Of a DNA stretch of 32,000 nt, positions 1,190 through 32,000 are shown piece after piece. How positions within the stretch are numbered: position 1 is the stretch's first letter; each line of letters starts with the position of its first letter. The translations under genes were made by a program, and so were the position numbers. A model generated the notes under the pieces. That model was given only the letters and a program-made list of their open reading frames with translations, made no database searches and was not told the DNA's origin. Source of the DNA: Candidatus Electrothrix sp. GW3-4 (GTDB lineage: Bacteria; Desulfobacterota; Desulfobulbia; Desulfobulbales; Desulfobulbaceae); NCBI RefSeq assembly GCF_037902255.1, contig NZ_CP147990.1, forward strand, positions 2,430,001 to 2,462,000. The letters run 5' to 3'.

Positions 1190-1219
1190 GGAGGACAATT
1201 TATCTTCGAGAGAAAAGGG

Positions 1220-2248
1220 ATGACAAATAATGCTTTACAAAACAACTTGTTGCTATATGTTATTTTATTAATATCGTTAACAACGAATTCTGTCGATATT
1301 TTTGCTCAAACCAGTAATCCTGCCATTATATCAAACATCGGAGAATTACCTGAAAGCGTCGGGTATGTAACTTACAACGGTTCAACCAGCATCAATGCAG
1401 AGGTTGGTCGTTGGGATACTCCATATACTGGTGGTGGTTACCCAATGTTTGATGTTGAACCTGAAGGGAAAAGTCTTTTGTACATTGAGATTGATGTGAA
1501 TGATGGGGGAATAGCTACATTTCGATACAGTCTGTCAACCTATGATGTGGGAGCTTATGATTGGCTTGATATTTATGTTATAGATCCAGGTAGTCAATCT
1601 ATAAATATTATTACTAATCATAGTCGGCCAGGCCAATGGGACGGTACATTATGGGAGAGTCCTGAACAGTCACAAAGTATAAATCTCAGCAGATGGCGTG
1701 ACCAACGAATCAGGATAATATTTTCCGTTAATCAAGATGGATATGGCGACCAAACACGTTCTAATATTTCAAGTTTCACTCTTTCTACCTGTCAGGTTTC
1801 TCCATTAACGCCTTTGACTGACCCTGTTGCTCTTGATTTTGAAGCGGGTAACTTTATTAATACTGATCCTCAATATTTTAATTTAACAACAGAATTATCC
1901 TGTTTGCGTAATGCGGTAACGGCTCAGGGAGGTTCACATAACCTCAGATCAGCTTATCGCCCTGCTCCTTATCAGAGGCATTTACGGGAGGTGTGGGACG
2001 GCTGGCAACAAATACGAAACCGAGACGAACCCGAGTGCGCAGACTTAAAAAGTGAATATCGTGATGAATTTAATCAACATGGGATAATATACCGCCCTGC
2101 CGCCACATCGAACCACTCCAATGGTAATGCTTTTGATTTAGCAATAGATGGATTATCGGCAAGTGAAATAGATGCAGCGGCCAATTCTTGCGGTTTGTAT
2201 CGGTTTGACCCTGTAGGAGATAGGACTCACTTCAGTCCTGCACCTTAA
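1220..2248 (+). CDS. secreted two-domain protein: unknown N-terminal domain plus C-terminal LAS/peptidase M15 (VanY-like) zinc peptidase domain
   Basis: ATG at 1220 follows a purine-rich stretch (aaaaggg). The N-terminus has a signal-peptide-like hydrophobic segment (LLLYVILLISLTTNSVDIFA). The C-terminal ~140 aa carry three ordered M15/LAS motifs: SAYR (244-247), SNHSNGNAFD (297-306, matching S-x-H-x-x-G-x-A-x-D) and a terminal THF (336-338). Confidence 0.65.
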   Translation: MTNNALQNNLLLYVILLISLTTNSVDIFAQTSNPAIISNIGELPESVGYVTYNGSTSINAEVGRWDTPYTGGGYPMFDVEPEGKSLLYIEIDVNDGGIATFRYSLSTYDVGAYDWLDIYVIDPGSQSINIITNHSRPGQWDGTLWESPEQSQSINLSRWRDQRIRIIFSVNQDGYGDQTRSNISSFTLSTCQVSPLTPLTDPVALDFEAGNFINTDPQYFNLTTELSCLRNAVTAQGGSHNLRSAYRPAPYQRHLREVWDGWQQIRNRDEPECADLKSEYRDEFNQHGIIYRPAATSNHSNGNAFDLAIDGLSASEIDAAANSCGLYRFDPVGDRTHFSPAP

Positions 2249-2271
2249 TCCCTCTCCTCTGATTACTGATG

Positions 2272-2293
2272 AAAATCGAAACGATTTTTTTTT
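2272..2293 (+). terminator. weak AT-rich hairpin plus T-run after the M15-domain gene
   Basis: aaaatcg (2272-2278) pairs with cgatttt (2282-2288) around a 3-nt loop, and the T-run continues to 2293. The stem is weak (5 AT + 2 GC). Confidence 0.3.
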
Positions 2294-2325
2294 ACGTTAT
2301 TCAAAACAAGTTATAGGTGATTGAT

Positions 2326-2916
2326 ATGCTCAAAAGACTGTTAATTCTGTTAGTATGCGTTATAGTGTTCTTTCCGGTTGCTTCGCATTCCGCTTATTTC
2401 TCGGAGCATGATGCAGATATCCTTTATTGGCATGAAGAAACCAACGGGAAGCATTATTATTATTATCATGTGACTAACCTCTCTTCCGAATCAACAATTG
2501 TTGCTGTATATATTGGCTATGATTGGGAGCATGGGATACCTCTTCTTAATAGAACCCGTGCGGAGACAGCACATGTTCCCTTAAAGTTTTTTTCACCTCC
2601 CGGATGGACAGGTAAGGTGCAGTATACAGAAGAAACGCTCTATTATGATTTGGAATGGGAAACAGGAGACCCTTCTAAAAACATTAAACCGGGTGAATCC
2701 AGTTATCGTTTTGGCGTTGAACTGACAAGTCAACGTGACGATCATATTAATACCAATTTTACAGTAATCTATGGTGACTCAACAGTTGCGACCAAAGCAT
2801 TAAGTGGCAGCGAGACCGAAGCCCCGCCTAAAAACCATATATTATCTCCGCTGTACCTGTTGCTTTTATCAAAAGGAATAGATGTGAAGTTTGCACGTTT
2901 AAATTCGGCTGGCTAA
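2326..2916 (+). CDS. secreted hypothetical protein
   Basis: The ORF opens at GTG 2317, but ATG 2326 lies 5-6 nt downstream of GGTGA (2316-2320). The product has a signal-peptide-like N-terminus (MLKRLLILLVCVIVFFPVASHSA). No family was recognised. The gene is AT-rich like its upstream neighbour. Confidence 0.6.
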   Translation: MLKRLLILLVCVIVFFPVASHSAYFSEHDADILYWHEETNGKHYYYYHVTNLSSESTIVAVYIGYDWEHGIPLLNRTRAETAHVPLKFFSPPGWTGKVQYTEETLYYDLEWETGDPSKNIKPGESSYRFGVELTSQRDDHINTNFTVIYGDSTVATKALSGSETEAPPKNHILSPLYLLLLSKGIDVKFARLNSAG

Positions 2917-3353
2917 ATGTAAGCCTCAGAGGCTCCCGCTCTTATTAAGCATCCAAAGCACGTAGGTTGGGATGAGCAGACGGGATGCGGTTGCCGCACC
3001 CGTGAACGAGGTGCATGACGTGTGCGGCCTGCATGACTGTTAAGCACCTCAAGGGACATTATGCAAACAATCCCCATCCCTGATTTCGGCACACCCTAAC
3101 CCTTGCAACCATCGCCTGTGATTACAACGGCACCTAAGCAACAGACGGCGTTCTCTTACCCGGAGTGAAAGAGGCCATCAACAACATCACGGATATTGAT
3201 ATCCATGTCAAAAGGCTGATCGTAACGCTGAGGTCGTAAGCAGTGAACAATACTATCAACCGGAACAGATAGAGCTGCCTTCTGTCCGCAGATCATCAGA
3301 CCAACATCAGCAGCGAGTAGGGCTTGTGATCTGGCAAGGTCGGATAGGACAGA

Positions 3354-13546: not shown

Positions 13547-14947
13547 TCAGGCAGTCCCACTACTAATCCCATTACTAATATAGGGCGCTATTTCTTCCGG
13601 TTTCAGACTGCATTCTTCCATACCCAAGGCCCGAAGTTCCTCAAGAGAACGAGGGAGCAGGCATGAGTCTGGATCCTGCAGGATTATCTTTCCCCCATGC
13701 GTGACAACGGCTTCCATCCCCTCCTTCATATTCTGCTTCACCCCGCTGAGAAAAAGCACCGTTAATGCTGTCCCGAATATCTCGGCAGCAGAACAGAGTA
13801 AACTATCAGTATCAATCAACTGCATTCCGTCATCACTCTCTGGGCCTGTCAACACAGGAATACCGTCGTCAGAGATGATGACTTCTCTCCGCCCGTGACA
13901 ATTGCCTACCAGACATTGCCCACCCAGCAACTTATTTGTTTGAAGCGAGGTCGTGGCAGTGTACTTGGTAAAATTATCAAGGTATGCGGTCAGGTACTGC
14001 TCAATACCTGGATACATATTCTGCAAGACTAATACTGACATATCGTGTTCATACTGTAATGCAGGGATAATCTTCTGCAACTCCAGCATTCCGCCAAGGC
14101 CCCCCAGTATCAACAGCAGCTTCTCTGCTTTTTTTTCTGGCTGTTCCTTGGTTGCGGGATCAACTGGTTTCAATTTCTTGGCCCTGCTGACATTATCAAC
14201 ACAGAACTCTTTAACATTGAGAAGAAGATATTGCAGGCGCTTGCCGATCAGATCCCATGATTCTGGGCTGGTAGGCTTAGCAACCAGATCCACGCATCCA
14301 TAGCGCATAAAATCCATCATTCTCGAATAATGCTGATCATTAAAATTACTGACCAGCACCACTGGTGCTGGGGAGCGTATCATGATATGCTTCAGCGCGA
14401 CATCACCACTCATGACAGGCATAGTCATGTCCAGGGTAACAAGATCCGGGACCTGCATTTCCAAAAATTTCAGCGCCTCTCTCCCGTTTGTTGCCGTCCC
14501 AACCACCTGGGCATTGATCTGTTCTTCAAAGAGCTTAATAAATGCCTTGGTAAAAAAACGGGAATCATCCACCACCAGGACCTTCGGCAAAAGTGACTCT
14601 TCTTCAGAGGGCATTTTGCTTTTGTACTGCTCATCAATACGGCGAGCTGCCTCAAGTAACAGAAAATTCCACGAGGAATCAATGGTCCGGACATTGGTAG
14701 AGGCAAAGAGCATGCTAAAGGTGCCTGAAGGCCAGCTCATAATACGATAAAAGGCCTCTTCTCCGGTTAACTCACCAAATTCAGCATGAATAATTTCATT
14801 ATCAGAAAAATAAAGGACCCCACGATTATCTTCGCTGAGTACACTGAGCTTTCTGTCATCTCCAGCAAGGCAGGCAAACTGAACAAGATCCACTAACCCC
14901 AGCCCTTCAATCTCACCGACAAAACCGCTTCCAACAGGATGTTTCAT
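13547..14947 (-). CDS. three-domain protein: DUF4388 + receiver (REC) + degenerate CheB-methylesterase-like domain
   Basis: The N-terminus GEIEGLGLVDLVQFACL..GVLYFSDNEIIHAEFGELTGEEAFYRIMSWPSGTFSM has the DUF4388 pattern. REC is intact: VVDDS, TLDMTMP (D173), LVAKP (K224). The C-terminal region aligns to CheB but reads LGGLGG where GASTGG is expected, LQNMYP where QHMP is expected, and LSGVKQNMKEG where TGMGxDG is expected. Confidence 0.85.
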   Translation of the reverse strand: MKHPVGSGFVGEIEGLGLVDLVQFACLAGDDRKLSVLSEDNRGVLYFSDNEIIHAEFGELTGEEAFYRIMSWPSGTFSMLFASTNVRTIDSSWNFLLLEAARRIDEQYKSKMPSEEESLLPKVLVVDDSRFFTKAFIKLFEEQINAQVVGTATNGREALKFLEMQVPDLVTLDMTMPVMSGDVALKHIMIRSPAPVVLVSNFNDQHYSRMMDFMRYGCVDLVAKPTSPESWDLIGKRLQYLLLNVKEFCVDNVSRAKKLKPVDPATKEQPEKKAEKLLLILGGLGGMLELQKIIPALQYEHDMSVLVLQNMYPGIEQYLTAYLDNFTKYTATTSLQTNKLLGGQCLVGNCHGRREVIISDDGIPVLTGPESDDGMQLIDTDSLLCSAAEIFGTALTVLFLSGVKQNMKEGMEAVVTHGGKIILQDPDSCLLPRSLEELRALGMEECSLKPEEIAPYISNGISSGTA

Positions 14948-14981: not shown

Positions 14982-15749
14982 TTACAACGCATTAAAGGTG
15001 ACATGTGTTGCGATAAAAACCAACATAAGAACAAAGAATTCTTTAAAATGAGTTTCAGGAACCCTTTGCAGGAGCCTCGATCCCACCTGCGCACCAAGCA
15101 AAACGCCGAGAGCTCCGGGTATAACAACCCGCCATTCTATGCTCCGGCCAAACAGCACATGGACACTCAATGCTGTCACTGAAAGAATCATCATCAGCGC
15201 AATACTGGTCGAAACAGATCGAACCATGGCCAGTTTGCACCGCATATTAAAAAACGGCACCAGCCAATCCCCTACGCCTATCCCAAGAAACCCGGTCAAT
15301 ATGCTGCCAAGCAGGGTTATTAACCGTCCCCGATGCGCTGCTTCAAGATCTGCCGTATCCGAACCTGCAACAAAGAAATCATCTCCGCGAAGAAAGACAT
15401 AGGCAATAAAAAAAATCGTCAGGCCAAGAAAAAGCTCTATCCACACCGGCTGCAGGAGCAAGGAGAGCAATACCCCGAAGATAACAGCAGGGATGCCAAA
15501 AGTAACCAGCAAACGAACGAGCCGCCAATCAATCATCCCGGCTCGATTATTCGTATACGATGCACTGAGCTGACCGAAAAACTGAATCACAAGAGTACAG
15601 ATCACCGCGTCTTTCGGATCCAAGTCCGTGCTCATCAGCAATACGGGCATCCACAGAACCCCACCGCCCAAGCCGAAGAACATAGCGACAGAAGCAATTG
15701 CCACGCCGATTGGTAGCATCTGCCAAAATTCAAAGGCCCCGCCTAACAC
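14982..15749 (-). CDS. TauE/SafE (TSUP) family membrane permease
   Basis: An ~8-TM hydrophobic protein with the family-typical GLGGGVLWMPVLL motif near the N-terminus. The GTG start at 15749 overlaps the upstream stop by 7 nt (alternative ATG at 15719). Confidence 0.85.
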   Translation of the reverse strand: MLGGAFEFWQMLPIGVAIASVAMFFGLGGGVLWMPVLLMSTDLDPKDAVICTLVIQFFGQLSASYTNNRAGMIDWRLVRLLVTFGIPAVIFGVLLSLLLQPVWIELFLGLTIFFIAYVFLRGDDFFVAGSDTADLEAAHRGRLITLLGSILTGFLGIGVGDWLVPFFNMRCKLAMVRSVSTSIALMMILSVTALSVHVLFGRSIEWRVVIPGALGVLLGAQVGSRLLQRVPETHFKEFFVLMLVFIATHVTFNAL

Positions 15750-16321
15750 CGGTAAAAACTCCTGCCGAATTCAGACAAAGCATCTTCCAGCTCATCAAGG
15801 ATCTCCACAGCTTCAGCAACCTTTGTTTCCTGCTCTCCGTCGATCAGGGTCTGGCGAAGCTGCTCACTCATTCCCTTGGCCAAGAGGATCAACTCCTGCT
15901 CATTGGCATTGAGTTCATTAATATGCCGAGCCAAATCGCCGAGTTCATCTCTGCTTTGTTCCGGCAAAGTTGTGGAGAAATCACCAGCACTCATTGCCCT
16001 GGTTCCCTCGATAATGCGCTCCAGGGGAAACATGATTCTCTTGGTGAAGAGCATCATAACCAAACCAATAGCAAGGAGCAGGTTCCCGAGCATTACACGT
16101 ACTTTCAGGAGGATATACTTAACAAGGTCAGCTGACACTTCTGGTGAGGCGATATCATTGAGGGTGCCGAGAATTTTTTCCCCGTAAAGAAAGCTGTTCA
16201 TCTCCACAGCCATCGTCAAAAACACAACTCCGATAAAGACAATATAAAAAACCAACTGGCGCTGCAGCCCGCTTTTCGGCAAAAAACGTTTGAGGACCAT
16301 CTTGTCAAGTTTTTTTATCAA
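15743..16321 (-). CDS. small membrane protein with a HAMP domain and acidic coiled-coil tail (no output domain)
   Basis: Two hydrophobic segments, then a HAMP-like stretch (PLERIIEGTRAMSAGDFSTTLPEQSRDELGDLARHINEL), then ~60 aa of acidic helical tail. It overlaps the PilZ gene by 17 nt if ATG 16321 is the start. Confidence 0.7.
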   Translation of the reverse strand: MIKKLDKMVLKRFLPKSGLQRQLVFYIVFIGVVFLTMAVEMNSFLYGEKILGTLNDIASPEVSADLVKYILLKVRVMLGNLLLAIGLVMMLFTKRIMFPLERIIEGTRAMSAGDFSTTLPEQSRDELGDLARHINELNANEQELILLAKGMSEQLRQTLIDGEQETKVAEAVEILDELEDALSEFGRSFYRC

Positions 16322-16727
16322 GCATTTTCCTCAAATATTTTTTAAAAGCGTGAAGATCATCCTCATAAATATCCTTGAACTGGACCCCAACAGCATATTT
16401 TTCTTCATTGTCGGTCAACTTTTTTGACCAAACCACCTCGGCAACAGCCGTCAAGGGTTTCGACACGACCTGGGCATCAATGATTGCCGCAGTGGTTTGC
16501 AAATAATGTTGCCAGCCGATCAACTCAACAATAAGCTGCAAGATGGTTCCGTTTTTAAACAGCTCATCTGTGGTGAAGCACAGGCCAGTCTCTGAAACAT
16601 TACTGGTATACCCGCTTGTCATATTCACGTTCGTCATCGGGTATTGCAGTTTACCAACACTCAGCTTCACCTGTTTATCGAATCGCGGAGACTTCCTTCT
16701 GCATTTTCCTGTTGTTTTATCCACCAT
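16305..16727 (-). CDS. PilZ domain protein (putative c-di-GMP receptor)
   Basis: Both PilZ motifs are present: RRKSPR (RxxxR) near the N-terminus and NVSETG (D/N-x-S-x-x-G) about 30 aa later. Confidence 0.8.
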   Translation of the reverse strand: MVDKTTGKCRRKSPRFDKQVKLSVGKLQYPMTNVNMTSGYTSNVSETGLCFTTDELFKNGTILQLIVELIGWQHYLQTTAAIIDAQVVSKPLTAVAEVVWSKKLTDNEEKYAVGVQFKDIYEDDLHAFKKYLRKMLDKKT

Positions 16728-19468: not shown

Positions 19469-20380
19469 TTATCCGGCAAGCTCCCGGGCTAGGGCCTGAT
19501 ACTGCTCAGCAGATCTACTCTTTTCATCGTAGTATTGAATAGGAAGATTAACGATGTGTGACTCCTGCATCTTATCGTCGAGCTCAATAACCGTTTTACA
19601 GAGCATCGCTCCGTACTTACGATGAATCTTTTCATTGACCACCCGCTCCGATGTCTTCTTTGCATCAAACATGGTGATAAGAACCTTATATTCGACATCA
19701 TGGTCAATCCCCTTCAATACTTTAATAATGTCGCTAATTTGGGACACGCCGTGCATTGAAAGATATTCGCATGTGGTCGGCACGATAACGAGTTGTGCGG
19801 CCATCAGGGCATTTAAGGTAAAAAACTCTATCGATGGCGGAGTATCTATCAAGATATGGTCATAATTTTTTTCAATCTCCTGTAATTTGTTTCGCAGTAA
19901 ATACTCAAAATTATGCTGGCTCAAATAACGTTTTTTCAGCAACGCCATCTTACTGTTCGAGGGAAGTAAGGACAGGTTAGGATATTTCGTGTGGAGAATA
20001 ATATCACCTATCCCCTTAACCTCTTTGTTTAATAACTCATAAAAGGATCGAGTCTTTCTAAAGCCCAGCAGTATTGTCAAATTCGCCTGCACATCAAAGT
20101 CAACCAACAACACCTTCTTCCCCATGCGTGCTAAGGCCGCTGCCAAATTAAGGCAGGTGGTTGTTTTGGCAACCCCGCCTTTCTGGTTACTCACGGTAAT
20201 AATACGGTGATCATCCGGGGCTACTTCATCCTGCAGGAGGAAGGAATCATCAGCAGGGTCATTTTTGTACACCGTAAACCTATGATTACACTTGTGACAT
20301 CGCACCTTCAATGCCGGTTTATTAATTATATCGTCAGCAACCCTATACCTGGTTTTGCAATTGTCGCATGTAATAATCAT
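19469..20380 (-). CDS. ParA/MinD-family ATPase with an N-terminal MJ0042-type zinc ribbon
   Basis: The N-terminus MIITCDNCKTRYRVADD..VRCHKCNHRFTV has two CxxC pairs in the MJ0042 pattern. It is followed by the deviant Walker A ITVSNQKGGVAKTTTCLNLAAALA and LLVDFDVQANLT, typical of ParA/Soj. Confidence 0.85.
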   Translation of the reverse strand: MIITCDNCKTRYRVADDIINKPALKVRCHKCNHRFTVYKNDPADDSFLLQDEVAPDDHRIITVSNQKGGVAKTTTCLNLAAALARMGKKVLLVDFDVQANLTILLGFRKTRSFYELLNKEVKGIGDIILHTKYPNLSLLPSNSKMALLKKRYLSQHNFEYLLRNKLQEIEKNYDHILIDTPPSIEFFTLNALMAAQLVIVPTTCEYLSMHGVSQISDIIKVLKGIDHDVEYKVLITMFDAKKTSERVVNEKIHRKYGAMLCKTVIELDDKMQESHIVNLPIQYYDEKSRSAEQYQALARELAG

Positions 20381-20733: not shown

Positions 20734-21771
20734 CTAGCGGATAACTGACTCAATCACCTCAGCAAGCTTTGCTTCTTCAGTAACCAAATCCACTTTATTT
20801 CGCTTAATTGCAGTATCAGTCAGGCTGGGATACACACAGGTCTCGACACTTTGCGCTATAGTCTTACCGGATTTTTCCTGAATCGCGGCAAACCCTTCCG
20901 ATCCGTCCTCCCCGTATCCTGTGAGCAAAACACCAACGGTATTTTCCCTGAACACCTCAGCAGCTGAGCGAAAGAAGGTATCGAGCGGATTCTCCACTCG
21001 ATCACCAAGCTGAAAACAGGGGTCTCCGTTTTCGTTGAGTCCAACGGTCAGGGAAGCCATATTCGATTGAATATAGCAGACCCCCTGCTCCAGGACTGTC
21101 CCCTGACGAGCCACTTCTATTTTCCAGCGGACAAATTCGTTGAATTTGTCCGCAAAGGCAGCAAGGATTTTGGGAGAAATTTCCAGAAGAATAACAGCAG
21201 CGGCAGGCAGACCGGCATTAAGCCTGGTCATCAGACGAATAAAGGTATTGGGGCCAGTTAACGAAGTTCCTATGGCAATAAGATAGTCAAGGGGGTGAAA
21301 ACCATACAGGTCAGCAAGGCCTTCCTCCTTTTTGTGTTTATAGATCCGGACTCGGCGTATATTCTGAAAATTAACAGCTGAAGCAAGCTTGATGCGGTCA
21401 ACAATATGCTGTTTGGCTGTATGAATATCGCTCGATATTGCCCCAGAGGGTTTTGCAACAAAATCGACAACCCCAAGTCGGAGGGCTTCAAAGGTGATAG
21501 ATCCGTCACTGAAGAGCGAGCTCAGCACAACGATAGGAACCGGAGATTCAATCATGATATGGCGGACGGCCTGCAGCCCGTCCATGACCGGCATATCAAT
21601 GTCAAGCGTGATGACATCAGGATGAAGTTCCTTTATTTTTTCTAGCCCCTCCAGGCCGTTGTTTGCAACCCCAACCACTTCGATATCAGGGTCTGATTCC
21701 AGCAGATCACTGATCGCCTTGGTCATAAAGGTTGCATCGTCAACAACAAGAACCTTAAGTTTTTTATCCAT
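20734..21771 (-). CDS. REC-CheB-like protein (methylesterase domain lacking the catalytic His)
   Basis: REC is intact (VVDDATF, ITLDIDMPVMDG, DFVAKP). The C-terminal domain aligns to CheB. IGTSLTG keeps the Ser, LLEISP replaces QHMP (His to Glu), LTGYGEDG keeps the Asp, and TCVYPSLT replaces SCVVFGMP. The start is set at ATG 21771 (MDKKLKVLVVDD). Confidence 0.85.
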   Translation of the reverse strand: MDKKLKVLVVDDATFMTKAISDLLESDPDIEVVGVANNGLEGLEKIKELHPDVITLDIDMPVMDGLQAVRHIMIESPVPIVVLSSLFSDGSITFEALRLGVVDFVAKPSGAISSDIHTAKQHIVDRIKLASAVNFQNIRRVRIYKHKKEEGLADLYGFHPLDYLIAIGTSLTGPNTFIRLMTRLNAGLPAAAVILLEISPKILAAFADKFNEFVRWKIEVARQGTVLEQGVCYIQSNMASLTVGLNENGDPCFQLGDRVENPLDTFFRSAAEVFRENTVGVLLTGYGEDGSEGFAAIQEKSGKTIAQSVETCVYPSLTDTAIKRNKVDLVTEEAKLAEVIESVIR

Positions 21772-21873
21772 ACCGCAGCTTCCCCCCGTTCTGGAATCCA
21801 TCACGTAACAATATTATTTCGCTGTCGTTTTTGTCACCGGTTCTAATCTTTCCTAATCTGCCTGACAGAAAGC

Positions 21874-24800
21874 TTAATGAACCGGCTGTGGTGTCTCCGT
21901 AGCACTGCCTTTTTTCCGTTTAAAATTCAACGAACGCTGTTCCTGGCGAACGACTTGGTTTTCTTTTGCTATTTTTACAAGCTCAGGGATATCCAAAATA
22001 AGGGAAATACCACCGTCACCCAGAATAGTCGCACCGCCGAAGCCGCTTTCAACCCTCAGGTAATCGGCAAGCGGCTTAATAACCACCTCTTCCTGACCAA
22101 GAAGTTCATCAACAACGATGCCCAACTCCTGGGTTCCGGTACTCACCACGACAACAAACATCTTGTCTTCATCCTGCCCTTGGCGATCAATATTATAAAT
22201 TCTGGCAAGCTGAAAAATAGGCATTGTATTATCACGAAGATGAATAACATCAACACCTTCTATTTCGGAAATCTCATCCCGGAAGACCCTCAGGGTTTCC
22301 TCAACCGTGGTCAGAGGAATGGTAAATTTCTCCTGACCAACCCGCACCATCAAGGCCTGAATAATAGCCATGGTGAGCGGAATCTTGATGCGAAGCCGTG
22401 TTCCTTTTTCTGCCTCAGAAATAATTTCAACGGTACCGTTCAACTTCTCGATATTCTTCTTCACCACGTCCATGCCCACGCCACGGCCGGAAGTTTTGGT
22501 CGCCTTTTCAGCCGTACTGAAACCAGGCAACATAATCAGGCGCGTCAACTCCTGATCAGACATCCGCATCACTTCTTCCTTCCTGATAAGGCCTTTTTCC
22601 AGGGCCTTTGCCTTGATTCTCCTTGTATCAAGCCCCCTACCGTCATCGGTGATCTCCAGCACAATATGATCACTCTCGTGGAAGGCCTCAAGAAGGAGCG
22701 TTCCCTGAGCAGGCTTACCTACCCGCAGACGCTCCTCAACCGTTTCGATGCCGTGGTCAACAGAGTTTCTGATAATATGAATCAAGGGATCTGAGATAGA
22801 CTCAATGACCATCTTGTCAAGCTCAGTTTCCTCACCTTTGGTAACCAGCTTAACATCCTTATCCGTGTTATGGACTAAATCTCGTACCAAACGAGGATAG
22901 CGCTTAAAAAGCTGGTCAATGGGCAACATTCTGACCTTCATTACCCCTTCCTGCAGTTCATTGGATACACGGCCGAGATGAACACCTGCCTCGCTCAGAC
23001 GGAAAGAAAACTCATGAAGCGGCTTCAGTTGACTTTTTGTAACCCCCGAGGACTCAAGCAGCTGCTGCTCCAACCCTCGCATCTCATTAACAAGCTGAGC
23101 AAAGTAGGCCCTGCTTACAACCAGCTCTCCAACCTGATTCATGAGATAATCAATTTTCTCAGCATCTACCCTGATGCTGCTGCGCACAGTTGCTTTTTGG
23201 GCAGGCCCCTGCCTGTTTTCTTCCTCCTCAGCATGCTGCTTAAGGACCTCGGATTTTATAAAATCCAGTGTATCATCGGCTGAGCCAGGTACCTCGCTTT
23301 TTTCTTCAGCAACGTCCTCAGTGAGAGGTGCTTCCAGGGCATCATCATGCTGATCATCCCTGTTCTCCATTTCATCATCAGCTGCTGCCGCTTCAATCGC
23401 ATCTGCTCCATTTGAGGCCACAACCTTATCTAATAAATGACCGCCTGCCCCCAACGCAGGGGTCTCTGCTCTGTCATCAGGAGTTGCTGACTGCTCCATC
23501 CCAGCCTCTGCCCGTGCACCTTGACCATGTTCTCCTTCCTGCTCTGGAGCTTCTATAATCTCTTCTATAACGCTGTCTATGGAATCCTCTGAAACGCCAG
23601 CTGCATATTCCGACACCTCTAAGGCACTGCTGAGCTTATCAAAAAGCGCCTTTTCTTCGGAACCGCCACCATCACCATGATCAGTTTGGTCCGTGCTCCC
23701 TTCAGGAGTTCTTCTTTCTGGCTCTGGCTTATCAGCCTCTCCCTTGTCGTCTCTCTTCTCCTCGGGAACGCCCGCAACAGAGACATCATCCCCCCCTTGT
23801 GAGCTAGCAAAAGCGACCATACCCTTGTCGGCTCCAGAAAAAGTCTCATCATTTCCAAAACCTCCATTTTCTTCCCCGGAGAATTCACCGAGCTCTTGTT
23901 GCCCACCATCCCCGATAATCTGAGGATATACCCCGATGATCTTATCAACAAACTCCTGTAGCCCGGCAATGATATCCGATGCAATACCGGCGGAGACATC
24001 AGCAAGATATCCTTCAACAACACTCTGCCATAGCTCGCAAAAAGATGTCAGGCTGGCATACTCCATATAATTGGCTGACGAGGCGAGGTGTCCAATAGCA
24101 TCATGACAATTATTGAGTATTGTTTTTTTATCACCACCTGCCTGGTATTCTCCAATCCTGGCCTGGATATATTCAATATCGGTCTTTAATTTCTTCAGAA
24201 AAATAGAAATCAGCTCTTCGTCATACTCATCATCGGAAAGTTCGTTATTAAGGGAAAGGGCTTCTACGTTAGGTTCTTCCCGAAGTGAACCATCAGGATC
24301 CATTGCAGATATGGAAGCGGCCTCCTCACCTGGCATCTCACCATCCAGGCTGAGGATATCCCCCCCCTTTTCTCCAGCTTCAGACATCCTGGGGTGTTCA
24401 TCAGAAAATATCGAATCCAAGGCCCGGTCAAGATCAATACCCTGAGTTTCCCCCTCTTCTTCTGGCTGATCATCGCAGGTTCCGTCATCGAGCTCAATAA
24501 GACTCTCTGAAACAACAGCTGGCTCCTCATCGGAAAAAATGGAATTCAGGGCTGAATCAATAGAGGCTGTATCATGTTTTTCTTCTCCTGAGTTATCAGC
24601 GAGTATATCTGCATCATCCTGCGAATAGCCCTCCATTGCCTGGGGAAATGAACGGATTATCTCGTCCAGATAATCCTGCATGAATGAGAGGTTAGGCATT
24701 CTGCCACTTGAGAGCTGCTCAACCGCATTCTCAATAGCATGCTGCCAGTTGGAATAATGCTGGGTAAGCTTTTCATAGCCCATATAGTTGGCAGACGACT

Positions 24801-25446
24801 TAAGACTTTTGATGGAGTCGCTGCAGCGGTACAGAACATCCTGCTTGTCCACAGAGATAGACAGTTCAACGGTCTGGGCATAGAGAAAGGGGATGTTTTC
24901 TTTCAGCTGCTGAAGAAATATATTATACAGTTCCTCATCATACTCATCAGACATGTTTTCTTCAGCGAGAAGACCTGTCCTCACTACTTCTGGGTCCTCC
25001 TCAGGAGGCTCATCTTCTCCAGAGGCTGTGTCGTCGGGTATCCTCTCATCTTCAGCTGCCTCCGTATCGCCTTCAACAACTCGCCGTATCTGCTCTACAA
25101 GATCAGACACCTCGGTCTCCTCGGCCTGGGTACGCTCAAGTTCGTCAACCAAGAGCGTTATCCGGTCTTTACCGGCAATCAGCAGGTCCGTAATGGCCGT
25201 ATTCAGCGTAATCTCGTTGCGACGAATAAGGTCAAGCAGATTTTCCAGTTTATGAGACAGTTCAGAAACTCGCTCAATACCAACGAATTGAGCCGCTCCT
25301 TTGATGGTATGGATGGAACGAAAAATTTCATCCATCACCTCTTTATCTTCATAATCCTGTTCAAGCCGGAGAAGACTGCTTTCCATCTCTTCAAGATGTT
25401 CAGCTGCCTCAACAATAAAATCCGGTAACATTGATGAGTCTATCAT
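21874..25446 (-). CDS. cheA: chemotaxis histidine kinase CheA, unusually long (~1190 aa), with one canonical and two degenerate Hpt-like modules
   Basis: Hpt P1 is FRSIHTIKGAAQFVG (His49). P3 is IRVDAEKIDYLMNQVGELVV. P4 has DPLIHIIRNSVDHGIE, DDGRGLD and GRGVGMDVV. A C-terminal CheW-like P5 is present. About 650 aa between P1 and P3 consist of acidic linkers plus two paralogous helical modules. ATG 25446 follows GGTGGA; the ORF is open from GTG 25455. Confidence 0.92.
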   Translation of the reverse strand: MIDSSMLPDFIVEAAEHLEEMESSLLRLEQDYEDKEVMDEIFRSIHTIKGAAQFVGIERVSELSHKLENLLDLIRRNEITLNTAITDLLIAGKDRITLLVDELERTQAEETEVSDLVEQIRRVVEGDTEAAEDERIPDDTASGEDEPPEEDPEVVRTGLLAEENMSDEYDEELYNIFLQQLKENIPFLYAQTVELSISVDKQDVLYRCSDSIKSLKSSANYMGYEKLTQHYSNWQHAIENAVEQLSSGRMPNLSFMQDYLDEIIRSFPQAMEGYSQDDADILADNSGEEKHDTASIDSALNSIFSDEEPAVVSESLIELDDGTCDDQPEEEGETQGIDLDRALDSIFSDEHPRMSEAGEKGGDILSLDGEMPGEEAASISAMDPDGSLREEPNVEALSLNNELSDDEYDEELISIFLKKLKTDIEYIQARIGEYQAGGDKKTILNNCHDAIGHLASSANYMEYASLTSFCELWQSVVEGYLADVSAGIASDIIAGLQEFVDKIIGVYPQIIGDGGQQELGEFSGEENGGFGNDETFSGADKGMVAFASSQGGDDVSVAGVPEEKRDDKGEADKPEPERRTPEGSTDQTDHGDGGGSEEKALFDKLSSALEVSEYAAGVSEDSIDSVIEEIIEAPEQEGEHGQGARAEAGMEQSATPDDRAETPALGAGGHLLDKVVASNGADAIEAAAADDEMENRDDQHDDALEAPLTEDVAEEKSEVPGSADDTLDFIKSEVLKQHAEEEENRQGPAQKATVRSSIRVDAEKIDYLMNQVGELVVSRAYFAQLVNEMRGLEQQLLESSGVTKSQLKPLHEFSFRLSEAGVHLGRVSNELQEGVMKVRMLPIDQLFKRYPRLVRDLVHNTDKDVKLVTKGEETELDKMVIESISDPLIHIIRNSVDHGIETVEERLRVGKPAQGTLLLEAFHESDHIVLEITDDGRGLDTRRIKAKALEKGLIRKEEVMRMSDQELTRLIMLPGFSTAEKATKTSGRGVGMDVVKKNIEKLNGTVEIISEAEKGTRLRIKIPLTMAIIQALMVRVGQEKFTIPLTTVEETLRVFRDEISEIEGVDVIHLRDNTMPIFQLARIYNIDRQGQDEDKMFVVVVSTGTQELGIVVDELLGQEEVVIKPLADYLRVESGFGGATILGDGGISLILDIPELVKIAKENQVVRQEQRSLNFKRKKGSATETPQPVH

Positions 25447-25591
25447 ATTCTCCACCTTGTAACTCTCTGATTATTCTTATATCCAGAACACATACCAACT
25501 ATCCGGTGCCTTCCTCAGCCGTAACCAGCACGCTCTTTTTGCGTCTTTCTCACATTTTCCAGCCAATCAGCAACAAATATTTCCTTTCAGC

Positions 25592-26221
25592 TCAAGAGGT
25601 TGTTACTCCGGACTCCTGCTGGTAATCAGAAACCATTTTTTCATCTTCCAGCTTAATTTCAAAATAACTAAACGACATTACAATAGACTTGAGATCTTCA
25701 TTATTGCGATGCATTTTACTGATATCTTTTTGTATACTATTATTTATATTGAAATCGGACTGCTCCGTGTCCAATGAAAAATCCAAATCCTGGGCAATAT
25801 TCTCAAGCAGATCCCGGCTCAACTGGCTATGGTTCCATACAAAGAGTAAGACCTCCTGCATATTTATCGCCAAATCATTAATATTTTCACCGAGAGAGCC
25901 GATTTCATCTGCCCTTTTCATATGATTCAATGTTTCAAGATGGCCGTCTGCCATTAATCTGCTCGCTGCCCGTATCTCAGCTAAGGGTTTAATAATATTA
26001 GTTTTGCAATACATAATTGCGGCAACTTGAACGCTCACGAGGAAAAGCAGAATGACACAGAGTGAGGCATGAATAACTCTTGAATTCCCGCCACTGTGTC
26101 TGAAAAATAGATAGAGAAGGCCTGCTGCTGCAATCATGGTCAGCAAGAAGTTGAGTACAAAAAAAAGCTGTGCCTTTTTCTCCAAACTCACATCGTTTGC
26201 TGCCTGTAACAAAATAGACAT
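25592..26221 (-). CDS. small membrane protein with a HAMP-like domain (no output domain)
   Basis: Two hydrophobic segments (LFFVLNFLLTMIAAAGLLYLFF, ASLCVILLFLVSVQVAAIMY), then a HAMP-like stretch (IIKPLAEIRAASRLMADGHLETLNHMKRADEIGSLGENINDLAINMQ), then a ~90-aa polar tail. ATG 26221 is preferred over TTG 26230. Confidence 0.65.
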   Translation of the reverse strand: MSILLQAANDVSLEKKAQLFFVLNFLLTMIAAAGLLYLFFRHSGGNSRVIHASLCVILLFLVSVQVAAIMYCKTNIIKPLAEIRAASRLMADGHLETLNHMKRADEIGSLGENINDLAINMQEVLLFVWNHSQLSRDLLENIAQDLDFSLDTEQSDFNINNSIQKDISKMHRNNEDLKSIVMSFSYFEIKLEDEKMVSDYQQESGVTTS

Positions 26222-26460
26222 AGGCGACAAATCCGTTTTAAGATGAATTTTGTGGCGACCAGCAAAAACCGTCCCCCACTACACTGCCCGCAATTTTCTC
26301 CAAGGTCATGAGACGTTACATCTGTACCCTATCAATCTCCCCATGTTCAACATACGCTCTACGCAAGGTCTTCTTCTCTATAGAAGGTCATGAACGAAAA
26401 TACCGTAAAGACAGCTACCGTATACCCTCACAGTATACCCACGGTCCCGGTGGTCGGGAT

Positions 26461-26826
26461 CTAGTCCTCTGCTTCCGATTTCTCTATCATCTCCAAAATC
26501 TCTCTCGCCTTATGCTTGCTGGCAAAGCCCCTTGCTCCAAGGGCCTCAACTTCAGCCCGGTATATATCTTCATCAAGATTTGAAAGGAAGATGATATGGG
26601 CGTCGCTGTCATAGCGTAAAATCTCCTTTGCAGCAGCAAGGCCATCCATTTCACGCATAGTGATATCCATAGTAACGATATCGGGCTTCAGAGACTTATA
26701 TAACTCAATAGCCTCCAGGCCATTTTTCGCCTGCCCCACCACAATATGGCCCGGCGGCTGTAACAGTTTTGCGATCATCTTACGCATCATAGATGAATCA
26801 TCAACTATCAGAACTCGCTTACTCAT
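26461..26826 (-). CDS. cheY: single-domain response regulator CheY
   Basis: A 121-aa stand-alone REC with LIVDDSSMMR, VTMDITMREMDG and the receiver fold pattern. It lies 4 nt downstream of cheW. Confidence 0.9.
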   Translation of the reverse strand: MSKRVLIVDDSSMMRKMIAKLLQPPGHIVVGQAKNGLEAIELYKSLKPDIVTMDITMREMDGLAAAKEILRYDSDAHIIFLSNLDEDIYRAEVEALGARGFASKHKAREILEMIEKSEAED

Positions 26827-26830: not shown

Positions 26831-27343
26831 TTATTCTCCGTCTATTGCCTTAAGCTGCTTTAATTCATCTGCAAGGAGGATACGGTTAAAATCAAGCAGG
26901 ATCAGAAGGCTTTCACCGATATCGCAAACACCTCGTATATATTGATTGGCAAGTCCGGCCACAACAACTTCTGGTGGAGGCTCAATGGTACTTTCCACTA
27001 TTTTCAGAACCCTGGTGACAGAGTCCACAATGAATCCGGTCACCCTGCTATTAATATCCAGGATCAATATCCAGGCATCTTCGGATGCGCTGTCCTCACG
27101 AAAGAGATTCAGCCGCTTCCTCAACTCAATAACAGGAATAATATTACCGCGTAGATTAATAACACCTTCTATGAAATCAGGTGAGTTTGGTACAGATGTA
27201 ATAGGAGCTGAACGGATAATCTCCTGTACCATGAGAATATCTACCCCAAATTGTTCATTACCGATGGTAAAACCGACCAGCTGCATAAGCAGGTCTTTTT
27301 CTTCCTGGTCGGTCATTTTATCGGCTGCAAAAGTATCAGCCAT
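26831..27343 (-). CDS. cheW: chemotaxis coupling protein CheW
   Basis: A 170-aa protein with the CheW-domain pattern LVGFTIGNEQFGVDILMVQEIIR..ITSVPNSPDFIEGVINLRGNIIPVIELRKRL. Confidence 0.9.
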   Translation of the reverse strand: MADTFAADKMTDQEEKDLLMQLVGFTIGNEQFGVDILMVQEIIRSAPITSVPNSPDFIEGVINLRGNIIPVIELRKRLNLFREDSASEDAWILILDINSRVTGFIVDSVTRVLKIVESTIEPPPEVVVAGLANQYIRGVCDIGESLLILLDFNRILLADELKQLKAIDGE

Positions 27344-27523: not shown

Positions 27524-30500
27524 TTAGAGCTTAAACTGCTCAACCTGATGACGCAGTCTCTCAGAAGCAGCCTGCAACTCATCGGTAATGGACACAACCA
27601 CACCAGCGCCCTCAACCGTTTTTTGCGCTCCTTCAAAGGACTGTTGGGCAATCCTGACCGCATTCTGCGAACGCTCACCCTGAGCAGCAACCAATTCACT
27701 GAGCTGATCAGTACGACCCACAATCTCACGCATTTCAGAGTCAATGGCACTGGAACCGGCACTTGCTTCCGATACCAGGGCACTAATGATCTGAGACTGC
27801 TGAACCATAGAGGAAAGCGCTGACTCAGCTGCCTGACGACGAGCACCCTGCTCACCAGCCATCTTGGAGATCTCTTCTGCCAATTTGTTCAGTTCCTGAA
27901 CCAGGGTCTGGACGCTCTGGATATCGCCTTCAACAACCTGAGCAACCGCTGCAATCTCCTCAATGGAGCGCATATTATTACGACCGCTGGCGTCAATCTT
28001 GGAAAGAGCGTCCTGCAGTTCTTCAGAGTACCGTGTTCCTGCCTCAACGCTGGCAGCAGAATCTTTAATCAGCTGGGTAATCTCCTTGGCAGCTTCAGAG
28101 GAACGCTGCGCCAGTTTACCAACCTCGTCAGCAACAACCGCAAAACCCTTACCATGGGCACCGGCACGGGCAGCCTCAATAGCGGCGTTCAGGGCCAGCA
28201 GGTTTGTCTGCTCGGCGATTTCTGTAATAACGCCGATGATTTCAGAGATCTGACCAGAGGACTCGGCAATAGCCCGCATACCAGCAACCGTGTTTTCCAC
28301 CGCTGCCCGACCATCACTGGCTGCCTCCAGAGCCTCCTGACCCTGAGCCGTGGCAGCCTCTACCGCCTGGCCCATGTTCCGAACAGCTGCGGTAATCTCA
28401 TTCATGGATGCGGTCACCTGCATAACCATTTTACCCTGCTCATTGGAGGTGGACACAACCATGGCACCGGTTTCACCCATGGCACCCACACGATCAGTGG
28501 CGGTTTCCGCTTCCTCGGACTGTTTGATAACCGCGTCACTCACCGTATCCATGGATTGGAGCAGCTCTGCAATGGTTTGCTGAGAACGCTGCGCACTCGC
28601 CTGCTGCGCCTTGGCACCTTCAGCAACCTGACCCGCGGTCTGTCCCATGGTCTGGAGCAGCTCTCTGGTTTTCTCGGACTGCTGGGCCTCAACCTCAGCA
28701 CGATCCCTGTTCGCAGATGCACGACCAGCCACATTATCAGCGTTGGCAGCAACGGCCTGGGATACGGTCTGGACCTCGGAGAAGGCCGCGTTCAACTCAA
28801 CCAGCATATTGTTAAATTCGTCCGCCATCTGACCAATCTCATCAGTGGAGGTCGTCTCTACCTTCAGGGTGAGGTCACGTTCCGCAGCAACCTGACGAAC
28901 AACGTCAGCGATACGCACAATCGGGCGGGCAAAACCACCCCCAACAAACCAGGCAACAGCGAACACGATGACCGCAATAACAAGACCAATACCCAGGGCC
29001 TGGAGGCGCAGGGTGGTGATAGCGGCTAGGGCCTCGTCCACATCGATCTTGGCCTCAATCAACCAGTCAAAATCCGTATTCAGGGCCTTGGGCAGGTCCA
29101 GCTTAACAGCAGAGGAGAGAATAGGAACCCCCCGGTAATCCACAGATCGTTCCGTTACACCGGTATCAGAGCGGAAGGCGTCCGCAACAATGGTCGAGGT
29201 CAGTTTGGATTCAAACAGGGTCAGGCCCAGGCGGGAATCAGAGCGGGTCAGATGATCCTCACCCACGAGAAAGGACTCACCCTTCTCACCCAGACCGGCG
29301 CGCTGATCAACCAGGGCCTGGATATCGTCGTTGGTCAGACGGATCGCCACGATGGAAACCAATTGGCCCTGCTGAACAACCGGGGCCGCCACAAAGGCCA
29401 GGGGCTTATTGGCCGGGGCATAATGGGCGTAGTCCGTCATGGCTGTGCGGCGGGTCTCCTTGACCTGGCGGACCAGACGACCCAGGCCAGTGTCTTTCAG
29501 ATCCCCGGTCATGAGATTATTATGGTATTCCTGTTCCTTCTTGACCGAGTAATAGCAGTATCCGTTCGGCTCAATGAGATAGAGGTCAAAATAGTTATAG
29601 CCCTTCTGAACCTTGGTCAACAGGTCCTCGGTCTCCCCCTCATGGGTCGGGTTCATAACATCGGCCAGGGGACCGGTGGTGATCAGACCCCAGCGAAGAC
29701 CAGAAATATCCACCGTTGTATAGGTGGACAGCTCAAAGTCGCCGGTACTACCAACCTTGTACATAACGCCTGACTTGCCAGCCAAGGCCGCCTCGGAATC
29801 CTTGCCCGGTTTCAGATCACCGATCCGGCCCTCTTTGACCACGCGGTCAGAGTGCAGCTTAGGTGCGCCAGGATCACCGACCAGGTAGGACTCAAAGGTC
29901 TCAACCATCCCCTCACGCTCCTGGACAATGGCGTTGATCTCCTGGGAGGAGAGCTGGAAGGCCCCCACCCCGAGGAAGCGTCCTCCCTCCATAATCGGGG
30001 CCCCGAGAAAGAGGGACTGCTGATTATTAGACGGGGCATAGGCGCTATAATCCTCAAGAGCTGCCTTTTTCTCTACCTTGATCTTGGCAAAGAGGCGACC
30101 CAGCCCGGAATTGCGCAAGGCACCGTCCTCCACGTTCTGGCCCAGATCAGACTCACCAGCATGGGTGTAGACTACATCCCCATCGGCAGCAATGAGAAAG
30201 ACGTCGTAATAGCCATGCTCTTCGACAAAGGAGGCAAACATGGGGCCGTATTTCTCTTTATAGCCGTTCCAGAGGCTGCCGCCAACCTTGCCCCCCTCTT
30301 CATGAAGGGCCTCGCCAAACTCCTGGATGGCGTTCTGGGTACTGAGGTTTTTCGTCATCATGGTGGCGTCAGAAAAACGCTTGCCAAAATAGCGCTCCAG
30401 GGCCGCTTTCTTCAAGGCCTCAATACCCAGTGTCTTCGCAACAGCATCGGCACGAAGACCCTGAATAACCTCAGAGACCATCTCAATATCAGCATAGGCC

Positions 30501-30718
30501 TCCCCCAGGTAATCCACAATCTGTCCTTTTTTCAGGTCGCGGATACCCTCCAGCTGGTTATCAGCACGTGCCTCCAGGGCCTTGGCCGCCTGCAACTGGT
30601 CAACAAAGGCGTTGACCAGAAAGGGCAAAAGACCAACGGCGAGCATGATCGCAACCAGCTTACCGCGAAGTCCCAGACCTCCAAACCAGCCGGAAGTCGT
30701 CCTCTTCAAATTTTTCAT
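27524..30718 (-). CDS. methyl-accepting chemotaxis protein with two tandem Cache-like periplasmic modules, HAMP and a very long signalling domain
   Basis: TM1 is at ~20-38. The periplasmic region of ~535 aa holds two paralogous modules ([30 protein letters not shown] and [31 protein letters not shown]). TM2 is at ~575-596. HAMP is [28 protein letters not shown]. The conserved hairpin is [39 protein letters not shown] strong SD (GGAGGAGGGG) precedes the ATG. Confidence 0.92.
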
Positions 30719-30925: not shown

Positions 30926-32000
30926 TCAGGCAGCCATTTCCCCTGCCGAGCTCGCCAGCACGGCCTCAATACTCTTGGGAATTCCCGTATCTGCCAGCAG
31001 TTTGGCCCCAGGGCAGCGGGCTGCTACGGCCCCGGGCATCTCCCGGTACAGGCTCCCTGCCGGATCCTGGACAATCCCGGTCCCACCGACCCGCAAGACC
31101 TCCTCCATCCCCTCTCCTCCATCCTCACCCATCCCGGACAGGACAACAGCCACACTTTTCTCTTTTATTCGCTCGGCCACAGAGTAGAAGAGCATATCTA
31201 TTGACCCCCTGCGCGTGGCAAAAGGGGCTTGAGAAAGATGGAGCACCAATTCCCCCTCCAGCTCATGTACGGTCAGGTACTCATCGCCTGAGGCAAAATA
31301 GCAGACCCCGGCTTCAATCCGGGCGTTATTCTCTGCCCGCCGGATAATCAAGGGGGAAAGCCGGTTGAGATACTTAACAAAGGAATCCAGATGGCGAGAA
31401 GGGGCATAGAACATCACCAGGTATGCCACAGGAAACTGGGCAGATAAATGAGGCAGGAGCTTGAGTAAGGCCCCGTAACCGCCTTCTGCAACGCCCAGGG
31501 CGACAAGCCGTTCGCAGCGCTGACCTGCAAGGGCAAGCGCATCTTTCTTTTCCTGACTCACGGCCCGCACATATTTCACCGCCTCCAGCTCAACTTCCGC
31601 TGCCAGACGCACCTTACGCTCGATCTCGCTGGTCTGCTCCTCAAGATTTATCTCTCCGGTATTCGAGGGCTTAGCAACAAAATCCACTGCCCCGTATTTC
31701 AAGGCATCAAAGGTAACGTCAGCCCCTTCTACAGTCATTGAGCTCAACATCACGGTAGGAGTAGGGGCCTGGATCATCAGGTGTTTGATCGTTGTCAGGC
31801 CATCCATAACCGGCATTTCCACATCAAGGGTCACCACGTCTGGTTTGAGCTGGGGAATGATCTGCAACGCCTCTTCCCCGTTCTCTGCTTCGCCAACAAC
31901 TTCCACAACAGGGTTGTCTTTAAAGATATTGGCAATGACCTTTCGCATCATTCTGGAGTCATCGACAATAAATAAATTAATCTTCTGATCAGCAGCCTTT
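30926..32000 (-). CDS. REC-CheB-like protein (catalytic Ser and His both replaced); 5' end outside the window
   Basis: The reading frame stays open to the window edge (..KAADQKINLFIVDDSRMMRK), so the true start lies beyond 32000. REC is intact (IVDDS, VTLDVEMPVMDG, DFVAKP). In the CheB-like domain, GVAEGG replaces GASTGG (Ser to Ala), VMFYAP replaces QHMP (His to Tyr), and LSGMGEDG keeps the Asp. Confidence 0.85.
   Translation of the reverse strand, partial: KAADQKINLFIVDDSRMMRKVIANIFKDNPVVEVVGEAENGEEALQIIPQLKPDVVTLDVEMPVMDGLTTIKHLMIQAPTPTVMLSSMTVEGADVTFDALKYGAVDFVAKPSNTGEINLEEQTSEIERKVRLAAEVELEAVKYVRAVSQEKKDALALAGQRCERLVALGVAEGGYGALLKLLPHLSAQFPVAYLVMFYAPSRHLDSFVKYLNRLSPLIIRRAENNARIEAGVCYFASGDEYLTVHELEGELVLHLSQAPFATRRGSIDMLFYSVAERIKEKSVAVVLSGMGEDGGEGMEEVLRVGGTGIVQDPAGSLYREMPGAVAARCPGAKLLADTGIPKSIEAVLASSAGEMAA

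Follow-up and report, generated by a model that had tools for sequence, protein, structure and literature searches.

The cheA gene analyzed here lies in a stretch of 32,000 nucleotides (nt) from Candidatus Electrothrix sp. GW3-4 (contig NZ_CP147990.1, positions 2,430,001 to 2,462,000), hereafter the window, where it occupies positions 21874–25446 of the minus strand. Its product of 1,190 amino acids (aa) carries two additional domains between the phosphotransfer domain P1 and the dimerization domain P3, which we call X1 and X2 and, as a family, X. X is a four-helix bundle with a short fifth helix and is homologous to the CheA histidine phosphotransfer (Hpt) domain; X1 and X2 are very probably pseudo-Hpt domains derived from P1. 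X is no relic but a conserved family with a signature of its own, because X1 is conserved to the level of the kinase core, the signature is near-invariant across phyla, and the domain occurs widely.

X1 and X2, His-less relatives of P1

X1 (24610–24969) reads DEYDEELYNIF...SIKSLKSSANYMGY...W...FPQ, and X2 (23896–24255) reads DEYDEELISIF...AIGHLASSANYMEY...W...YPQ; both, like all other parts of the protein given below, are encoded on the minus strand. A first-pass annotation of this DNA, made by a model from the letters alone, had proposed that the two modules are paralogous and resemble the Hpt helix pair, and both proposals hold. In a BLASTP comparison of residues 121–330 against residues 331–760, the modules share 59/169 identical residues (35%, E = 3e-25). 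Pfam Hpt matched the isolated modules weakly over nearly the full model (E = 0.068 and 0.044), but the scores of 13.9 and 14.5 bits fall below the gathering threshold of 24.6 bits (PF01627). A profile built from 21 X modules of relatives matched the P1 domain of Thermotoga maritima CheA over its full length (2LD6, E = 4.9e-6; 1TQG, E = 1.8e-5). Similarly, HHalign aligned 255 X domains with the 195 canonical P1 domains of the same proteins over 105 columns (97.0% probability, E = 9.9e-11).

Structure predictions with AlphaFold2 (AF2) covered X1 alone and P1 joined to X1 through the linker between them. X1 alone was predicted as a four-helix bundle with helices at 16–41, 47–68, 71–92, and 100–117 (predicted local distance difference test [pLDDT], 83.9; predicted template modeling score [pTM], 0.77). 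With a deeper alignment, the helices were placed at residues 171–197, 201–222, 225–246, and 254–271, followed by a short helix at 276–285, with a pLDDT of at least 95. A Foldseek search of the PDB with the X1 model returned 1TQG as the best match and many Hpt proteins after it, but at E = 0.13, which is not significant for so simple a fold; the homology of X was therefore rested on the profile results.

In all, 1.84 billion cluster representatives were searched exhaustively with an X profile, yielding 505, 238, and 115 matching representatives at E ≤ 1e-3, 1e-10, and 1e-30, respectively. The best 150 were examined, and nearly all are long CheAs. The family signature has four elements: EEYDEELFxIF opens helix A, LxSSANYMGYxxL spans the end of helix B and the B-C turn, Y..W lies within helix C, and FPQ follows helix D. 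In the family alignment of 255 domains, which supplies the column numbers used throughout, 19 columns are near-invariant across phyla, including D16 (251/255), E18 (250/255), I22 (247/255), Y67 (253/255), and M68 (254/255). Among 19 orthologues of the cable-bacterium clade, X1 matches P1 and the kinase core in its degree of conservation. Conservation of X2 in cable bacteria is moderate and below that of X1, with the signature retained, and the linkers vary freely. Neither Pfam (2025 copy) nor NCBIfam (June 2026) holds a model for X. PF27543, pre-computed on one relative (P0010), was considered as such a model and rejected, since it is missing from other X-bearing proteins (P0009, P0016–P0018, P0020–P0022, P0024, and P0025).

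A locus scan limited to one genome per species identified 77 X-bearing loci, distributed over Electrothrix, Electronema, other Desulfobulbaceae, Desulfobacterales (including Desulfonema magnum and Desulfatitalea), and Gammaproteobacteria such as Competibacteraceae. Two of the carriers, Desulfatitalea alkaliphila and Desulfonema magnum, are cultured species. The CheA architectures found in these loci were P1-X (21 loci), P1-X-X (33 loci), (P1-X)2 (12 loci), (P1-X)3 (6 loci), and P1-X-X-X (2 loci), and every P1 is directly trailed by an X in 75/77 loci. The exceptions among the best 150 representatives are P1-X-X-P1 (five) and P1-P1-X (two). The breadth of the family, its tie to P1 as a cassette, and the conserved short motifs of the linkers (see below) go beyond what the first-pass annotation had noticed. 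Neither a P2 domain nor a C-terminal receiver (REC) domain was found in the X-bearing relatives scanned, and Response_reg had no match in the present CheA or in 11 relatives scanned. Four Desulfobulbaceae loci (L035, L046, L048, and L054) encode divergent X-bearing CheAs of up to 1,664 aa with 35–45% identity in the kinase core; these loci have a minimal arrangement of a methyl-accepting chemotaxis protein (MCP), CheA, and a zinc-ribbon-ParA ATPase, with no adjacent cheW, cheY, or cheB.

The residues required for phosphotransfer are lost in X. As the first-pass annotation had read, the column of the phospho-His holds Lys in X1 and Gly in X2, with a His at +1 in X2, and every alignment agrees on these assignments. 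Among the 255 domains, this column is occupied mostly by Glu (40), Gly (37), Asp (35), Lys (26), Asn (26), and Ser (22), with His in only 2; His stands at +1 in 5/255, and no column of X exceeds 19% His. The adjacent His of X2, to which the annotation had drawn attention, is not conserved: it is present in 1/20 orthologues, the present genome alone, and is replaced by Arg in 16/20. The second catalytic residue is the conserved Glu of Hpt helix C, Glu70 in Escherichia coli, which is hydrogen-bonded to the phospho-His and activates it. The equivalent column of X (column 81) holds Ile (50), Leu (47), Gln (35), and Glu (17), compared to Glu in 190/195 P1 domains of the same proteins. X does keep a basic residue at His+3, small residues at His+4 and His+5, and Gly in the B-C turn. 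Since the phospho-His and the activating Glu are both lost, X is unable to serve as an Hpt phosphodonor.

The remainder of the protein is that of a complete CheA, with all core domains and the N, G1, F, and G2 boxes present, in the domain order P1(Hpt)-X1-X2-P3-P4-P5; its closest relatives are CheAs of Candidatus Electrothrix. The open reading frame (ORF) reaches a GTG at position 25455, which falls within a Shine-Dalgarno-like GGTGGAG ending 3 nt upstream of an ATG at 25446. Together with the shared beginning MIDSSMLPDF of all 19 recovered CheA orthologues, this identifies the ATG as the real start of cheA. Residue numbers counted from the GTG are 3 higher than those counted from the ATG, and the phospho-His is His46 in ATG numbering. 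The first-pass annotation had the nucleotide positions right, and its module ranges fall inside the bounds defined by hidden Markov models (X1, aa 163–282, and X2, aa 401–520, in GTG numbering), but its His49 and H456 were counted from the GTG and are offset by 3.

Pfam matched Hpt at residues 6–104, H-kinase_dim at 756–838, HATPase_c at 886–1025, and CheW at 1030–1158, with nothing else at E ≤ 10, and the NCBIfam CheA models fit the kinase core (E = 2.8e-131). P1 (25111–25446) is a canonical Hpt domain (Pfam Hpt, E = 7.9e-21) in which phospho-His46 lies in SIHTIKGAAQFVG, within SIHTIKG, and its partner Glu lies in KLEN. It matched CheA P1 chains of the PDB (2LD6, E = 1.3e-19; E. coli 8C5V, E = 3e-16) and was predicted by AF2 as five helices with a pLDDT of at least 95. 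The dimerization domain P3 (22933–23181; H-kinase_dim, E = 1.3e-15), the kinase domain P4 (22372–22791; HATPase_c, E = 5.6e-16), and the CheW-like domain P5 (21973–22359; CheW, E = 4e-26) complete the protein. The N, G1, F, and G2 boxes of P4, read from the translation, are HIIRNSVDHG, DDGRGLD, PGFST, and GRGVGMD, respectively.

The interval from P1 to P3 measures 643 aa, close to the roughly 650 aa of acidic linker described in the first-pass annotation, but 240 aa of it are the folded X1 and X2. The linkers proper are L0 (24970–25110; 47 aa), L1 (24256–24609; 118 aa), and L2 (23182–23895; 238 aa), which contain 27–36% Asp plus Glu and 17–23% hydrophobic residues. L0, with 36% Asp plus Glu, is predicted to be disordered, with an AF2 pLDDT below 50 at residues 130–156; L1 is acidic, and L2 is both acidic and variable. 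The annotation had seen no recognizable P2, in agreement with this linker composition, the disorder predicted for L0, and three further results: Pfam gave no match to P2 or a CheY-binding domain at E ≤ 10 in CheA or in the modules, no P2 chain was among the PDB phmmer matches of the two long linkers, and no conservation island longer than ∼35 aa was present in the linkers across the 19 orthologues. No PDB or Pfam domain was found in L1; its matches to designed TIM barrels had no passing stretch and were dismissed as compositional noise.

The linkers do contain short conserved motifs. Two copies of [IL]DxALxSIFSDE in L1 (nt 24526–24564 and 24397–24441) are kept across Electrothrix and Electronema, while the rest of the linker is variable; the motif bears a loose resemblance to the amphipathic, acidic peptides through which CheZ and FliM bind CheY. 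L2 contains an island, DSIDSVIEEIIEAP (nt 23545–23586), that is conserved across the same two genera, and the sequence ALFDKLSSALE (nt 23617–23649), an instance of L[FLIVM]xxLxxA[LF][DENS]. The latter pattern occurs in the CheAs of 37/71 species of the X family, located 75–180 aa upstream of P3, with 39 matches compared to 0.02 expected from shuffled linkers. It is missing from all Competibacteraceae loci, which also have no zinc-ribbon-ParA gene in the cluster. This motif could serve as a docking site for ParA or CheY. The long, “unstructured” P1-to-P3 regions of P2-less CheAs can thus conceal folded domains and conserved motifs that standard models overlook.

Possible functions of X

The first-pass annotation had left “decoy” and “docking platform” side by side as roles for the modules; between the two, we favor docking. 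We propose that X is a non-phosphorylatable receiver-docking or receiver-handling module that replaces P2, a statement that, taken whole with its mechanism, we hold tentatively and at somewhat less than an even chance. In the crystal structure of CheA3P1 bound to CheY6, the receiver pocket comprises Ile11, Leu14, and Tyr15 of helix A, Asn56, Val59, and Leu60 of helix B, and the B-C loop, and Arg58 (His+7) hydrogen-bonds Ser83 of CheY6 at the interface (PMC2817712). By alignment, the pocket positions correspond to X columns L19, I22, F23, S64, Y67, and M68, and Arg58 corresponds to N66. These columns are near-invariant signature residues of X, and they are more invariant in X than the same positions are in the family's own P1 domains. 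The docking reading is based on this invariant face together with the position of X in the slot of P2, the P1-X cassette, and the REC-rich gene neighborhood.

In the proposed mechanism, the face of helix A, helix B, and the B-C loop with which P1 docks receivers would have been kept invariant in X, and the flexible acidic linkers would tether each X to P1. Each X would then transiently hold a receiver, either CheY or a neighboring CheB-type protein, near phosphorylated P1 (P1∼P). X would in this way take over the docking and sorting role of P2, itself carrying no phosphate. We infer both the binding partner of X and its effect on phosphotransfer. The AF2 model of P1, linker, and X1 contains two confident bundles and a disordered linker (pTM, 0.52), with no confident packing of P1 against X1, a result that neither helps nor hurts the docking model.

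Several points weigh against this reading. The pocket was mapped by sequence alignment with assumed gap-free offsets and no superposition, and a number of the residues concerned also lie in the core of the bundle, so that structural constraint could account for part of their conservation. The same face of P1 probably also touches the P4 kinase domain, and a role directed at P4 would therefore fit the same conservation. The copy number of X (1 to 3) does not follow the number of REC genes in the cluster (3 to 4), and in the four divergent Desulfobulbaceae loci, the X-bearing cheA stands beside MCP and zinc-ribbon-ParA genes with no adjacent cheY or cheW. Finally, the Foldseek value obtained for the X1 model is not significant taken alone.

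Alternatively, X could terminate the signal, docking CheY∼P or another REC∼P through its Hpt face and speeding or scaffolding its dephosphorylation in place of CheZ, CheC, or CheX. A precedent is CheA3 of Rhodobacter sphaeroides, a specific CheY6∼P phosphatase whose isolated P1 is without activity (PMC3591291, PMC2924250); the region between its P1 and P5 holds two His-less Hpt domains (Berry et al., PMC10782961). The columns of X at His+4 (Ser, 72%) and His+7 (Asn, 85%) share a helical face with the lost His, and the His+7 residue of CheA3P1, Arg58, contacts CheY6 Ser83 in the interface (PMC2817712). CheZ, CheC, and CheX had no Pfam match among the window ORFs scanned, although such phosphatase genes may lie elsewhere in the genome. 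X lacks the known phosphatase motifs, namely, DxxxQ of CheZ, ExxN of CheC/CheX, and H-E/D-x-x-T/N of HisKA; Ser and Arg/Lys stand 3 to 4 residues before Asn66. We consider it unlikely that X promotes receiver dephosphorylation through the conserved Asn66, possibly with Ser63 and Asp16/Glu18. If it were true, the present CheA would combine kinase and phosphatase in one protein, and there would be a structural basis for the action of CheA3 on CheY6∼P, which has long lacked an explanation.

An explanation that we consider similarly improbable is that X acts as a pseudosubstrate or decoy, competing with P1 for the P4 active site or with P1∼P for receivers and thereby damping or shaping the output. 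X retains the fold of Hpt and the surface surrounding the lost His, the two X domains per P1 of cable bacteria would mean a high local concentration of competitor, and pseudo-HPt proteins without the conserved His are a recognized class in the plant two-component literature. However, P1 and X co-duplicate as 1:1 cassettes, which fits an X that assists P1 better than one that inhibits it, and no confident intramolecular contacts were predicted by AF2.

X and the linker motifs might instead form a scaffold unrelated to receivers, tethering CheA to the zinc-ribbon-ParA ATPase, the HAMP-only membrane protein, or the receptor array. In Vibrio, CheA binds ParP for ParC-dependent array positioning. 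Consistent with a similar arrangement, most of the 77 loci have the zinc-ribbon-ParA gene after cheA-cheB, and in the divergent subgroup it is the only conserved neighbor apart from the MCP gene; in addition, the linker motif LFxxLxxA[LF][DE] shows strong enrichment and is absent in the Competibacteraceae loci, which lack a clustered ParA. Yet the Competibacteraceae CheAs retain X with neither ParA nor the HAMP-only gene in the cluster, and X itself is therefore independent of them. ParA co-varies with the linker motif and not with X, and this co-variation comes essentially from one clade. We judge a scaffold of this kind slightly less probable than either a terminator or a decoy.

The remaining two explanations are disfavored by the conservation data. 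The first-pass annotation had suggested that the modules may be alternative phospho-sites, and a branched relay of this kind, as proposed for the Spt/Tpt domains of Pseudomonas aeruginosa ChpA, could use a nearby His or Ser63/64, Tyr67/70, or Asp16, all of the latter being conserved in X (Ser63, Ser64, Tyr67, Tyr70, and Asp16). The receiver domain of ChpA has been suggested to feed phosphoryl groups to two His-less domains, but these were not phosphorylated in vitro (PMC10782961). The suggestion is not supported for X: His is not conserved at or beside the phospho-site, as detailed above, the activating Glu is lost, and Ser63 and Ser64 align with the small Gly52 and Ala53 of canonical Hpt, which suggests packing and not chemistry. 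We therefore regard phosphorylation of X as very improbable. It is equally hard to credit that X1 and X2 are decaying P1 duplicates that now serve as mere spacers, a role suggested for the additional domains of R. sphaeroides CheA3, since even with His-losing Hpt duplicates known, the extra CheA3 domains judged largely non-functional (PMC10782961), and X2 less conserved than X1, X1 is conserved like the kinase core while its flanking linkers evolve freely, and the signature is near-invariant across Desulfobacterota and Gammaproteobacteria (Y67 and M68, >99%).

Gene neighborhood of cheA

All the genes described in this section are on the minus strand unless stated otherwise. Upstream of cheA and in the same orientation are cheY (26461–26826) and cheW (26831–27343), both syntenic in most related loci. 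Directly downstream is cheB (20734–21804), encoding REC and methylesterase domains; this ORF is outside the Pfam scan and was assigned from its translation and its consistent pairing in the locus BLAST. Next downstream of cheA-cheB is a gene for a ParA/MinD-type ATPase with an N-terminal zinc ribbon (19469–20380; Pfam), whose position is kept in most of the 77 loci. This synteny suggests ParA-based positioning of the chemosensory array. The gene order conserved across phyla is [PATAN-REC-CheB]-MCP-CheW-CheY-[HAMP-only membrane protein]-CheA-[PATAN-REC-CheB]-CheB-zinc-ribbon-ParA, and most of the 77 loci have cheY and cheB-type genes with a REC domain bordering cheA.

Two PATAN/DUF4388-REC-CheB-like genes (13547–14947 and 30926–32000) carry a PATAN domain ahead of REC and methylesterase domains. 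The upstream one runs off the end of the window, its frame open to the edge; its counterpart in orthologue L001 is a 596-aa PATAN-REC-REC-CheB protein. Counting the ordinary CheB at 20734–21804, the window contains three genes of the CheB type, and no CheR turned up in the window ORFs scanned.

The MCP (27524–30718; 1,064 aa) has dCache and HAMP domains. Each of its signaling arms, on either side of the hairpin tip, measures ∼210 aa, which is unusually long (near 58–64 heptads, compared to the common 36–44). Two small proteins consist of a hydrophobic N-terminal stretch, a membrane segment by translation, and a HAMP domain, with little else. One is encoded between cheY and cheA (25592–26230), and the gene for the other (15743–16321) overlaps a PilZ-domain gene (16305–16727); both arrangements are syntenic across cable bacteria. 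The plus-strand ORFs 59–1189, 1220–2248, and 2317–2916 had no Pfam match, and the second and third of them fall in a region of reduced G+C content (0.42–0.44 at window positions 1001–3000, compared to ∼0.50 elsewhere). In cable bacteria, the present CheA is the central kinase of a conserved chemosensory cluster that plausibly steers gliding in oxygen-sulfide gradients.

Comparison with known systems

X is homologous over its whole length to the P1 domain of CheA (1TQG/2LD6; CheA3P1, 3KYI/3KYJ) and shares its helical-bundle fold, but it differs from P1 in the loss of the phospho-His and its partner Glu, in having its own signature, and in scoring below the Pfam Hpt threshold. The classical P2 domain occupies the same slot between P1 and P3 on flexible linkers, and the job proposed here for X, holding receivers near P1, would be the same. 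P2, however, has an alpha/beta fold whereas X is a helical bundle, and the two have no sequence match. P2 is missing in more than half of CheAs (PMC10782961).

Multiple Hpt domains are found in ∼18% of CheAs, and 93% of these belong to the type IV pilus (Tfp) or alternative cellular function (ACF) class, mostly with a C-terminal receiver; a C-terminal REC is present in >90% of multi-Hpt CheAs (PMC10782961). His-less Hpt domains are documented among them in P. aeruginosa ChpA (Spt, Tpt, and one newly found) and in R. sphaeroides CheA3 (Hpt2/Hpt3), where their role is described as “yet to be determined” (PMC10782961). X resembles these domains in having the Hpt fold without a conserved His inside a CheA. 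In contrast to ChpA-type multi-Hpt CheAs, which mostly carry a C-terminal REC, the present CheA has none. The names Spt and Tpt of ChpA refer to Ser or Thr in place of His, whereas the His column of X is variable. The extra Hpt copies of CheA3 were judged degenerate, while X is a strongly conserved, P1-paired family; the two were compared by description and not by direct homology.

Among the defined chemosensory classes, F4 of the Wuichet-Zhulin scheme invites comparison. All class F4 CheAs contain three Hpt domains (Berry et al., PMC10782961), F4 systems have been reported in Desulfobacterota (PMC12926219), and a P1-X-X protein would look like three Hpt domains to a sensitive profile search. 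The X-bearing family may thus be F4, already counted under “three Hpt.” In the published text consulted, the three-Hpt description of F4 makes no mention of two Hpt domains being His-less or of a shared signature. The ∼210-aa arms of the present MCP seem unlike those of the 40-heptad receptor subgroup linked to F4 (PMC12926219).

Beyond bacteria, X can be compared to pseudo-HPt proteins of plants. AHP6, in which the His is replaced by Asn, is reported to inhibit the cytokinin phosphorelay and thus sets a precedent for a role by competition and not by catalysis. Like X, it has the HPt fold without the phospho-His, but it is eukaryotic, stands alone, and is not part of a kinase, so the likeness is functional only.

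Relative to these systems, three points appear to be new: the extra domains belong to a single conserved family that lacks the His and has a signature of its own, this family goes together with P1, and the face that docks receivers is preserved in it. X offers a clean natural case for what “dead” phosphotransfer domains do. It is a cleaner case than ChpA or CheA3, whose His-less domains either sit within arrays of many Hpt domains or look degenerate. X is a single, well-delimited domain whose signature is near-invariant, selection on it is as strong as on the kinase core, and it occurs in simple P1-X or P1-X-X arrangements. With such simple architectures and with cultured carriers, the family is easy to test directly.

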